A stretch of DNA of 64,000 nucleotides from Escherichia coli (GTDB taxonomy: Bacteria > Pseudomonadota > Gammaproteobacteria > Enterobacterales > Enterobacteriaceae). Position numbers: made by a program. The stretch lies in assembly GCF_041886205.1 (NCBI RefSeq), contig NZ_CP169030.1; one strand, written 5' to 3'. Below are positions 51,001-54,000 of this stretch, piece by piece (the stretch's first letter is position 1; each line of letters opens with the position of its first letter).

Positions 51001-54000
51001 AACGCAGCATTTGCACGATTTACATCAACTTCTTGCCCGTTGATAAACGCCCGCAAAGATGGGGTTACCGGCAATGGCACTTTTCGGTCAGACTCATATT
51101 CTGCACGATTGCGCGACAGCGGCTCATGAACTTCCAGCCACTTTGAACCATTCGGTTCCGTTGTGTATTTCACTGGCTGATCAATAATTTGTACACGAGT
51201 GCCTACAGGAACATTATCAAACAGATATTTGATATCGTCATTGCGCAGACGAATACAGCCCTGACTTACCCGGAGCCCAATACCAAAATTGGCATTGGTA
51301 CCATGGATGGCATACAACCTGCCAATATAAATCGCGTACAGCCCCATGGGATTATCGGGACCCGCAGGAACAAATGCGGGCAAACTCTCCCCTCGTTTCG
51401 CATATTCGCGCCGAGTGTTCGGCGTTGGCGTCCAGGTTGGAGCTTCTTGTTTACGTTCAACGGTAGTCACCCAGTTACGCGGGGTTTCTCGCCCAGCCTG
51501 GCCGATACCAATAGGAAAGACTTCCACAGTATTACTGTCTGGTGGGTAGTAATAAAGACGCATCTCAGCGACGTTAACAACAATCCCTTTACGAACAGTG
51601 GCGGGCAAAATCAGTTGCTGCGGAATGGTGAGTTGCGAGCCGGACTTCGGCAAAAAAACATCAGCGCCGGGTTCGCTTCAAGCATGTTACTTAACCCTTG
51701 CCCGTATTGTGCGGCAAAAGTCTCCAGCGGCTGGGTATTGTGATCAGGAACAGTTACAGTAAGCGACTGCCCCACTAAACGGCTACCCTCTGGAGGTAAT
51801 GGATAAGTTACCGCCAGGCTAGTATGGCTGGCAAAAAGCAGAGCAAATGAGCAAAGAATATTTACACGACGCATCATGTCCCTTTCCTATGTCGCGAAAG
51901 CTATCCGTTAAGTATAGCTTTTATCAGACTTTTCGTTTTTAACTGTTCAAATCAGAAGTCGTATTCCCCGGTAGAACAATATTACTGGCAGCAAGTTCGC
52001 CCATGTTGTTGTATATCGCACAGGCAGCTTCGATGATGGGCATCGCCAGAGCTGCGCCACTCCCCTCACCTAAACGCATCTCCATATTGAGATAAGGCTC
52101 CAGCCCCAAATGCGAGAGCGCTATACGCGCGCCTTTTTCTGCCGACAGGTGAGAAGGAATGAGATACGGTTTGATTGCAGGAGACATCTGGCAGGCTGCG
52201 AGCGCAGCAGCATAAGAAAGAAATCCATCCAGCAACACGGGTAAACCGCAGGAAGCAGCACCTAACATCACTCCAGCCATTCCGACCAAATCAAATCCAC
52301 CCACTTTTGCCAGGACATCAACACCATCCTGAGGATTTGGTTGATTCAACGTAATCGCCCGACGCACAACATCAATTTTATTAGCCAGTTTATCTGTCGG
52401 CAGGTTTGCGCCAATCCCAACCACTTCTTCAGGATCCCGGCCAGTGATTGTGCTGACTATTGCCGCTGCCGGTGTCGTGTTTGCCATCCCCAGTTCACCT
52501 ACTCCAAACAGCGTGACACCGTTTTTTGCCAGCTTCCGCGTATAACATATGACGTCCAAAAGCAACTTTTCAGCCTGACGGCGACTCATTGCCGGAGCTG
52601 AAGCAATATTGCCGCTACCTCGTGCGACACGCATGTTGATAAGCCCGGGGATAGGCTCAGCAGTATCAATACCAACATCAATTACGTGGACGTTAGCGCC
52701 CGCTTGTGCTGCCAGCACACACACGCCGGTTGTTCCACGGGTCATATTTTCAGCCTGTATGGCTGTCACTTCTTTTGGAGAAATAGCGCCCCCTTCCTCC
52801 CAGACGCCGTGATCGGCACACATAACCAGTACCGCTTTTTTGCCCACATGCGGTATGCCATTCAACCCCGGCATTCCTGCCAGTTGTATGGCAAGCGCCT
52901 CCAGCTTTCCCAGGCTACCAACAGGTTTGAGTAACCCGTCAATATGCCGTTGTGCACGCGACATAGCGGCAGAATCGATGGCTGGGATCGTATTCAGTAA
53001 ATCGGCAAGTATTTGCATGTCACGTCTCTTTATAGCAGTGCCAGCAGGAAGACCAGTTCACCAAGCTCTATGGCTGCTCCCAGCGTATCGCCCGTTTGCC
53101 CGCCCAGCGTACGTTTGAGAAGCTGACCGAGGATGAAAATCGCCACCATCGTCACCACCATAGCAGCCACACCATGCATACCCGGCAATAATACGGCAGC
53201 AAAAATAGCGGCTAAGCCGAGTGTGACGCAGGTTTGTCGCCCATCAATTTTGCCAATGAACACATTGCCAAGTCCTTCTTCCCGGGCATAACGATGACGA
53301 TACATCAATAATGCGGCAGTCCCGCGGCTGACCGCACATGCTGCCGCCAGCGATGCAAGGATCGGTTCGCCACGCAAAGCCAGCTCGCTTAACACCAGAA
53401 TCTTTGCCAGTACAACAAAAATCAATGCCAGACCGCCGTGGGTGCCTAAACGGCTATCACGCATGATTTCCAACATGCGATCGCGGCTACGTGCAGAAAA
53501 TACGCCATCACAGGTATCGGCGAGGCCGTCCAGGTGGAATCCCCCGGTCATCAGCGCCAGCACAAGTACGCTAAACAGTGCCGCCAGTGGTACGCCACAC
53601 CATGCCTGCAGCACCATGAAGACCAGCCCGCTAATCGCGCCAAGCAATAATCCAATTAAAGGAAAAGTAATAATACCGCGAGAATAATGCTCGAAATCCA
53701 GTCCCTGGGACCAGCGACGCGGTACAGGCAGACGCGTAATAAATGAGAGCATCGCCCAAAATAATTTACTCATTTGATTTTTACTCCAATACCCGAAACC
53801 ACCAGCCATACTTCATTTGCCGCAGCGGCCAGTTGCTGATTTACCCGCCCGGCAATATCACGAAAATGTCGTGCCAGACGACTCTCCGGCACAATCCCCA
53901 TTCCCACTTCGTTAGTCACTAATACAACCTTTGCGGGGCAACGTTGGCAGGCAGCAATCAACGACTGAATCTCAGCATTAATCGCCTGTTCCATCGCCTG

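Follow-up and report, generated by a model that had tools for sequence, protein, structure and literature searches.

LdtA (ErfK) of Escherichia coli K-12 attaches Braun's lipoprotein to the meso-DAP of peptidoglycan. Tethering of Lpp is carried out by ErfK, YbiS and YcfS (PMC11449479). None of the L,D-transpeptidases (LDTs) of E. coli is essential; the phenotypes on record appear only when LdtA, LdtB and LdtC have all been lost (PMC12729407). The K-12 gene was compared with its counterpart in a window of E. coli DNA, by which the whole stretch of 64,000 nucleotides that was analysed is meant. Both lie in the same cobS-cobT-ldtA locus, and K-12 LdtA has the same domains and His/Cys motifs as the window gene after repair. 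However, LdtA of K-12 is intact, whereas in the window a break at codon 70/71 interrupts the frame, and the product predicted from it, of 88 aa, is devoid of the catalytic domain. The features of the locus are the following.

50943..51877, minus strand: ldtA (erfK), former coding region of the putative pseudogene including the stop codon (alignment, profiles, synteny)
51611..51877, minus strand: N-terminal ORF of 88 aa, ending at a premature TGA at 51611..51613
50943..51653, minus strand: C-terminal ORF of 236 aa, with TTG 51651..51653 taken as its first codon; its frame is open to 51677
51667..51668, minus strand: lesion, a 1-bp deletion that changes CCCGGG into CCCGG on the coding strand (G3 to G2)
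51652..51658, minus strand: A7 run, read as T7 on the coding strand, with the wild-type number of bases (alignment, run-length table)
50893..50921, minus strand: terminator-like hairpin and T run (AAAAAGCCTGCTAGAAAGCAGGCTTTTTT) just past the ldtA stop codon, read from the sequence
50872..50887, minus strand: remnant of 16 nt of the 3' end of tRNA-Asn (TGGCTCCTCTGACTGG), at the edge of the colibactin (pks) island

Restoration of one G yielded an uninterrupted ORF of 311 codons that corresponds to the full-length L,D-transpeptidase LdtA. The repaired protein was identical to K-12 LdtA at 307 of 311 residues. With the NCBIfam LdtA equivalog NF007563 (PRK10190) it reached 694.5 bits (cutoff, 517) over profile positions 1-310 of 310, whereas the paralogue models remained under their own cutoffs (NF007612, 456 versus 583; LdtE, 312 versus 480). 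Pfam recognized YkuD at residues 97-231 (E = 6e-24) and Ldt_C at residues 235-303 (E = 1e-23), and a match to the solved L,D-transpeptidase structure 4lzh was obtained with E = 5e-128. The codons for His192 (51303..51305) and Cys208 (51255..51257) of the HGT...SxGCIR motif have been kept. The gene is situated downstream of cobU-cobS-cobT, and the order cobS-cobT-ldtA is the same as in annotated E. coli records. By its equivalog score, its YkuD and Ldt_C domains and its conserved position, all of them properties of the sequence, the split gene is the ldtA orthologue, and its naming as erfK/ldtA in the preliminary description is upheld.

On the 3' side, the terminator-like hairpin element is the same as the one that follows the intact ldtA of contig L001. 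No gene lies downstream of ldtA in the same unit and, therefore, a polar effect is not expected. In K-12 ldtA is followed by tRNA-Asn, whereas in the window the edge of the pks island, which this E. coli carries, adjoins ldtA. The same layout from ldtA to clbA is present in CFT073. A tRNA search of the 64-kb window gave no tRNA, the full tRNA-Asn that follows ldtA in K-12 being absent.

Translation from the native ATG would give the product of 88 aa, which consists of a signal-peptide-like sequence (MMRRVNILCSFALLFASHTSLA), 48 native residues up to ...EANP and an out-of-frame tail of 18 aa. A Pfam search of this product detected no domain, and the catalytic YkuD is missing from it. YkuD and Ldt_C are left behind as a separate open frame: the ORF of 236 aa holds the whole of YkuD (with the Cys in SQGCIRL) as well as Ldt_C, as found with Pfam, and its first start codon, TTG 51651..51653, overlaps the end of the T run. 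Neither a signal peptide nor a Shine-Dalgarno-like sequence upstream could be read from the sequence of this ORF. The N-terminal and catalytic parts thus lie in different frames, in overlapping ORFs, as had been described, and no single ORF that joins the signal peptide to the catalytic domain exists in the window. Because of this split the gene was classed as an ldtA pseudogene and not as a functional member. As the catalytic ORF lacks a signal peptide and a ribosome-binding site, periplasmic LdtA would presumably not be made.

The switch between the frames had been placed exactly at the seven A residues at 51652..51658. Exactly seven A are indeed present there, but this is the normal length of the run, which was also 7 in every intact gene examined (MY203L1, E7-1N7, K-12 and CFT073), so that a comparison of homopolymer lengths with intact ldtA reveals no change. 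Alignment to two intact ldtA genes of E. coli revealed a sole indel, one missing G in CCCGGG. At 51667..51668 the plus strand has 'cc' in place of the 'ccc' of intact genes, and the coding strand reads C3 G2 T7 instead of C3 G3 T7. The deletion falls in codon 70/71 (Pro-Gly), 9 nt upstream of the T7 run on the coding strand and 7 nt outside the interval 51611..51660 that was originally indicated. The earlier placement is understandable, since both reading frames are open across 67 nt (51611..51677) with the A7/T7 run inside, and the TTG start lies at the end of the run. A lesion of this kind cannot be located from the overlap of two ORFs; only an alignment with intact alleles shows where it lies. 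That the frameshift would nevertheless be a change in length of A7/T7, by slippage or by miscalling, is refuted by the alignment and has next to no probability. It could draw on the overlap of the run with the first start codon of the downstream ORF, and on the T6 and T8 alleles of the run that exist in other E. coli, with T8 throughout Shigella sonnei. Against this, the window and all intact genes examined share a run length of 7, the G run holds the only indel, and T6 or T8 versions of the window haplotype were absent from a collection of 15 billion proteins. An intact ldtA of this lineage that combines T8 with CCCGG was likewise not among the sequences found.

A homopolymer sequencing error had been offered as one explanation of the split. 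The T run is unaltered, however, and the deletion recurs in public data (NCBI, Logan), where the exact product of 88 aa turns up on no fewer than 24 contigs, which come from at least 17 samples. The ten carrier places shown represent 17 samples, GCA_023162125.1 and GCA_002226155.1 among them. Carrier sequencing runs include SRR14867028, SRR4787438, SRR5018301, SRR19521149, SRR9913974, SRR3228740, SRR13000375 and SRR29352852. The identical deletion was found in all ten carrier loci that were read (L003-L012), which matched the window without a gap at 99.4-100% identity and contained full-length cobU, cobS and cobT. In one carrier contig (L003), the only one long enough, the pks island is located directly beside the deleted ldtA. 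As to the assembly quality of the window itself, 20 kb of clb genes matched strains 536 and UTI89 in one piece of equal length with 99.8% identity and no net indel, and the giant clb ORFs are intact.

An artefact of sequencing or assembly, with ldtA unbroken in the organism itself, is a most improbable source of the missing base, although some observations would fit it. Short G/C runs are prone to miscalls. The change from G3 to G2 was also met on other ldtA backgrounds (B2-like, 34 contigs; K-12-like, 5; one other), and in 7 of the 10 B2-like G2 contigs shown the neighbouring cobU, cobS or cobT is frameshifted, which marks error-rich data and implies that the ldtA G run can also be miscalled. 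Moreover, a 37-mer across the deletion had no match in 5,426 complete RefSeq E. coli genomes, 5,418 complete E. coli genomes matching an uninterrupted ldtA without the deletion. This 37-mer was designed so that every seed word spans the deletion; with an earlier 70-mer, identity alone could not separate the deletion plus SNPs from an intact gene with one SNP. An exact 44-mer across the deletion had no match among the GTDB species-representative genomes, to which the source genome therefore does not belong. On the other hand, the deletion is shared by six related haplotypes in the carriers, which were free of other gaps relative to the window and had intact cob genes, and the window has no net indel over 20 kb of clb relative to reference strains. 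A systematic error would be expected across haplotypes according to their abundance; instead, a rare haplotype has it in every copy seen. From these sequence comparisons a private sequencing error is excluded for the window deletion. The frameshift is real, as the option of a genuine inactivating mutation had it, but it stems from a 1-bp deletion in G3 beside T7.

The carriers form a cluster of six haplotypes that are 0-14 SNPs apart per 2,160 bp. The closest intact allele, MY203L1, is 13-25 SNPs away from them, and every other is at least 36 away. Within ldtA carriers differ by 0-1 SNP, which leaves a count of synonymous and nonsynonymous changes in their downstream frame powerless. An intact copy of the nucleotide haplotype of the window was not found in the data searched. 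Four contigs with a coding sequence for exactly the repaired protein were considered as intact ancestor and rejected, as their DNA identity was about 98% (three of the four were read); in L023, the only one of these long enough, ldtA adjoins nac and not pks. Past the U run, a synonymous change of the lineage from TCT to TCC makes a GCCG/CGGC stem of 4 bp tighter. Probably a single event, the loss of one G from G3 of CCCGGG in codons 70/71, produced the deletion in the progenitor of a small E. coli lineage, whose members would then have inherited it. The absence of a second lesion in the rest of ldtA suggests that it is recent. Altogether it is very probable, as far as sequence can tell, that ldtA is here a young, inherited pseudogene that resulted from this one-G loss.

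The split is an ordinary and presumably tolerated loss of a redundant enzyme. The loss would be tolerated because LdtB (YbiS) and LdtC (YcfS) perform the same reaction, and the lineage may rely on these two alone for the tethering of Braun's lipoprotein. The loss of LdtA may slightly shift vesiculation and the tolerance to bile or detergent; a strong phenotype is not expected. In annotation the split ldtA should be given as a frameshifted pseudogene, and it should be neither 'corrected' nor ascribed to a homopolymer error.

A frame that is broken in the DNA could still be rejoined during expression, as the option of a slippage-prone mutation implied. A -1 slip of the ribosome or the incorporation of an extra U by RNA polymerase on U7 would make the gene a pseudo-pseudogene and predicts some full-length LdtA in which residues 71-74 change from GADV to ALMF. 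Such rescue is very unlikely. In its favour, the U7 run comes 9 nt downstream of the deletion, within the stretch that can be read in either frame (51611..51677), a shift of -1 is what rejoining requires, and no further lesion is present in the downstream frame. Compensatory frameshifting at a low level following 'savior' indels is documented for other cases (PMC5009743). However, the upstream frame reads AUG UUU UUU UGC, which gives the heptamer G UUU UUU and not X XXY YYZ, and no GGAGG-like (Shine-Dalgarno-like) motif occurs in the 25 nt upstream. A stimulatory RNA structure downstream of the U run was considered and rejected, since the fold of 126 nt (MFE -28.4 kcal/mol) was no better than that of shuffled sequences (mean -32.3; z = +1.11). 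Efficient bacterial transcriptional slippage was described at 9 A/T (PMC5009743), whereas the run has a length of 7 here. It is also not conserved, as a metagenome allele with the identical protein spells GTC TTC TTA. The lack of further lesions, in turn, carries no information, given the mere 0-1 SNP that separates carriers in ldtA, and the split-frame arrangement is not conserved in relatives, the deletion 37-mer being found in 0 of the 5,426 complete E. coli genomes.

The ldtA split resembles programmed -1 frameshifting (dnaX, IS3-family transposases) and slippage systems in its overlapping frames, its U-rich overlap and the fact that a -1 shift would rejoin the frames. It differs from them in the lack of a canonical heptamer in register and of a stimulatory element, in a run of 7 instead of at least 9, in its absence from the complete E. 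coli genomes and in a T run that can be replaced synonymously. With the bacterial pseudo-pseudogenes of PMC9122581 and PMC11017572 it has in common a single frameshift in a gene that is otherwise intact and a homopolymer nearby. Low residual expression is reported there, whereas in the sequence of ldtA no feature speaks for read-through.

Indels in the same part of ldtA were also observed in other backgrounds. G2, T6 and T8 alleles occur on at least four of them, and the T6 and T8 alleles of the run are scattered over other E. coli, in backgrounds other than that of the window only; T6 was not found among the 1,737 complete genomes matched by the query. In S. sonnei ldtA has T8 throughout; the collection lists this allele in 2,294 blocks. 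S. sonnei is generally rich in pseudogenes. A literature search on erfK/ldtA pseudogenes or frameshifts, including those of S. sonnei, gave no paper that describes them.

The close spacing of independent lesions, which lie at most 15 nt apart (G2 here, T8 in S. sonnei and the scattered T6, T8 and G2), could point to an adaptive loss, in which selection in this gut or host-associated lineage would favour an outer membrane less firmly tethered to peptidoglycan, with convergent inactivation of ldtA in several lineages. Fewer links between outer membrane and peptidoglycan aid the survival of O-antigen-bearing E. coli in bile salts (review, PMC12729407), which would agree with this. Adaptive loss is nevertheless considered unlikely. 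Apart from S. sonnei, the frameshift alleles amount to a few hundred contigs among very many E. coli data sets, part of them from error-rich data, with G2 in none of the 5,426 complete genomes and T6 in none of the 1,737 matched. Furthermore, the two sites are the longest mononucleotide runs there, so that a mutational bias is enough. It is quite improbable that G3 and T7 (codons 70-76) would constitute a recurrent on/off point for lipoprotein tethering, with frameshifts that are selected or reversible and a -1 slippage on U7 that could keep a trickle of enzyme; if so, a looser attachment of the outer membrane would help in the gut.

With inherited loss by mutation as the preferred reading, the recurrence of indels in G3 and T7 may be a small example of how mutational hot spots shape the loss of redundant genes. 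The S. sonnei allele is alike in affecting the same gene within the same stretch of 15 nt by a single-base frameshift that is inherited lineage-wide, and it also gives a short exported N-terminal peptide (96 aa there) next to a separate YkuD ORF. It differs in that the T run has gained a base, where in the window the G run has lost one, and in its ldtA haplotype; it also spans a whole named pathovar, whereas the deletion in the window is that of a small lineage.

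The erfK/ldtA frameshift, the identity of the gene and the seven-A homopolymer reported in the preliminary description were all present in the window. The features of the split gene are as follows.

50943..51877, minus strand: ldtA (erfK), directly downstream of cobU-cobS-cobT
51611..51877, minus strand: N-terminal ORF of 88 aa, with a signal-peptide-like start (MMRRVNILCSFALLFASHTSLA), matching LdtA as far as ...LEANP and followed by an unrelated 18-aa tail
50943..51653, minus strand: C-terminal ORF of 236 aa, with the entire YkuD catalytic domain and the Ldt_C domain
51652..51658: run of exactly seven A (T7 on the coding strand)
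51667..51668: lesion, 'cc' where intact genes have 'ccc' in the alignment
50893..50921: terminator-like hairpin after the ldtA stop codon

When the gene was searched against 5,426 complete RefSeq E. coli genomes a match was obtained in 5,418 (best identity 99.0%), and the matches listed spanned 1,052 bases against the 1,051 bases of the query. Alignment with the intact genes of E. coli MY203L1 and E7-1N7 revealed a single gap: AACCCGGGCGCTGATGTTTTTTTGCC in the intact genes corresponds to AACCCGGCGCTGATGTTTTTTTGCC in the window, so that the G run has a length of 2 instead of 3. A T run of length 7 was common to the window and all intact genes examined, including those of K-12 and CFT073. On the coding strand the lesion lies 9 nt upstream of the T run, and it is 7 nt outside the interval of the preliminary description, which had placed the frame switch exactly at the homopolymer. 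That placement followed from the geometry of the ORFs, because both frames are open over 51611..51677 and the downstream ORF has no possible start codon before the TTG that overlaps the end of the T run. The homology of the downstream frame starts at Pro-Gly and not at the T run. Hence, the frameshift is real but its site had to be moved to the G run, and of the two readings proposed a genuine inactivating mutation was retained, although not as a homopolymer event.

The other reading, a homopolymer sequencing error, is contradicted by the unchanged T7 and by the same deletion at ten loci with clean neighbours. NCBI and Logan data contained the identical 88-aa product, together with its nonsense tail, on no fewer than 24 contigs. 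The ten places shown represent 17 samples, among which are eight SRA runs and the assemblies GCA_023162125.1 and GCA_002226155.1. CCCGG was found in 10 out of 10 carrier loci, without gaps relative to the window and at 99.4-100% identity, and cobT, cobS and cobU were full-length in all ten where covered. The carriers formed one cluster of six haplotypes, 0-14 SNPs per 2,160 bp apart, with MY203L1 as the nearest intact relative (13-25 SNPs) and all other alleles at a distance of at least 36. As they differ in this way, they do not represent one strain sequenced repeatedly. Indel noise is not apparent in the window itself: over 20 kb, its clb genes aligned to strains 536 and UTI89 in a single piece of equal length at 99.8% identity, and the clb ORFs of several kilobases are uninterrupted. 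A 37-mer spanning the deletion, of which each 28-nt seed crosses it, gave 0 matches in the 5,426 complete genomes, indicating that the allele is rare and lineage-specific. The protein repaired by restoring one G was encoded on four contigs only, and their DNA was about 98% identical where read, which implies a different haplotype; on the sole one long enough (L023) ldtA adjoins nac, not pks. An intact copy of the nucleotide haplotype of the window was not seen.

The change from G3 to G2 was also observed on other ldtA backgrounds (B2-like, 34 contigs; K-12-like, 5; one other). In 7 of the 10 B2-like G2 contigs shown, cobU/S/T were frameshifted as well; these are error-rich data, probably from long reads, and therefore the G run of ldtA can be miscalled elsewhere. 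Clean neighbours and restriction to one haplotype cluster set the lineage of the window apart from such cases. The window ldtA carries a genuine, inherited, lineage-specific 1-bp deletion and not a sequencing error.

Engineered frameshift products were also looked up by exact sequence in the collection. T6 alleles occurred on four backgrounds (27, 73, 144 and 17 contigs) and T8 alleles likewise on four (2, 124 and 18 contigs, and Shigella sonnei). Together with G2, these alleles were spread over several unrelated ldtA backgrounds, with contig numbers from tens to about 140 in each case; a portion had frameshifted cobU/S/T as well, as in noisy data, and others were in clean contigs. Among the T6 cases, some (L013, L017) were in error-rich assemblies. 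Of the complete RefSeq E. coli genomes, 1,737 were matched by the query, and none of these showed a T6 allele. In S. sonnei, codons 74-76 of ldtA contain T8 instead of T7, resulting in a truncated product of 96 aa, and T8 was confirmed in the DNA of four loci (L036-L039). With 2,294 collection blocks listing this product, the allele is effectively species-wide; no description of it was found in the literature. On backgrounds other than that of the window, indels thus truly occur at the T7 run. As the lesion of the window, a change in T7 length was rejected: the mechanism operates elsewhere but not here, where the run has its normal length. For the haplotype of the window itself, the collection contained neither a T6 nor a T8 version. 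That ldtA has repeatedly been switched off at two adjacent runs since looser outer-membrane tethering is advantageous seems very improbable.

If the ribosome slipped by -1, or RNA polymerase inserted one additional U, within 51611..51677, the two frames would be rejoined and yield LdtA with ALMF in place of GADV. Such a rescue at U7 is extremely unlikely. The upstream frame reads AUG UUU UUU UGC and offers no X XXY YYZ heptamer, a Shine-Dalgarno-like stimulator is absent upstream, and shuffled sequences on average fold more stably than the local sequence (z = +1.11 for the local fold). Efficient bacterial transcriptional slippage has been described for runs of 9 A or T (reviewed in PMC5009743), whereas the run here is 7. 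Nor is the T run conserved: an ENA metagenome scaffold (ERZ28628959) encodes exactly the repaired window protein with Val-Phe-Leu spelled GTC TTC TTA and no T7, which indicates that the homopolymer is a dispensable accident of codon choice. Nothing supports rescue beyond background level.

Addition of one G to ldtA gave an ORF of 311 codons without any other defect. The repaired protein scored 694.5 bits against equivalog NF007563 (cutoff 517), with the paralogue models below their own cutoffs; it was identical to K-12 MG1655 LdtA at 307 of 311 positions and matched the solved L,D-transpeptidase 4lzh (E = 5e-128). By sequence, the 236-aa frame keeps His192 and Cys208. It lacks a signal peptide, and its TTG is not preceded by a Shine-Dalgarno-like sequence, so that this frame would be unable to supply a periplasmic enzyme; the 88-aa product would be exported and useless. 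ErfK, YbiS and YcfS join the C-terminal lysine of Braun's lipoprotein to peptidoglycan meso-DAP via a catalytic cysteine (PMC11449479). Each of the L,D-transpeptidases of E. coli is dispensable, and it takes the combined loss of LdtA, LdtB and LdtC to produce the envelope phenotypes described (PMC12729407). The lineage presumably relies on LdtB and LdtC. Given the hairpin after the stop codon, a polar effect is not expected. The pseudogene appears to be young, because within ldtA no more than one SNP separates the carriers and the repaired ORF revealed no second lesion. Its origin by deletion is a known, ordinary kind of event.

On the side of the ldtA stop codon the window contains the following.

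161..49690: colibactin (pks) island, clbP to clbA, large ORFs intact (e.g. the 3,209-aa ORF of clbB)
48595..48722: perfect tandem repeat between clbR and clbB, 16 copies of the 8-bp unit ACAGATAC
50133..50651: 172-aa ORF in the ldtA-clbA spacer, no Pfam match
50872..50887: 16-nt remnant of a tRNA-Asn 3' end at the pks edge, 56 nt beyond the ldtA stop codon

Positions 24000..44000 were 99.8% identical to the island of E. coli 536, UTI89 and NU14, with no net indel. In K-12 a full tRNA-Asn gene follows ldtA, whereas the window has the 16-nt remnant in that place, which looks like a direct-repeat boundary of the island; ARAGORN detected no tRNA in the whole 64 kb. CFT073, Nissle 1917 and other B2 strains share the order ldtA-IS3 remnant-clbA, but their ldtA is intact. 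The clb genes of the window share 99.8% identity with their counterparts in B2 strains, yet its ldtA differs from that of CFT073 in 24 codons, suggesting that island and backbone have different histories. The spacer (49700..50870) includes IS3-family transposase remnants. CFT073 and Nissle have about 770 bp more at this place, and their alignment with the query fell into two pieces covering 86% of it. In the otherwise identical carrier contig JALGCE010000016.1 the tandem repeat was 96 nt (12 units) shorter, through either true copy-number variation or collapse in short-read assembly. Many independent short carrier contigs from Logan and NCBI (L005-L011) broke at precisely the same two positions, 51205 in ldtA and 53364 in cobS, probably at k-mers common to paralogues or repeats.

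Beyond cobU the window has a patch rich in IS elements.

55681..62940: IS-rich patch
55986..56852 and 58797..59687: orfB of two IS3-family elements
56870..57802: orphan autotransporter beta-domain ORF
60553..61752: IS91-family transposase
62653..62940: ParE/RelE-type toxin

The best DNA matches of 58000..64000 were E. coli plasmids, at 95-98% identity.
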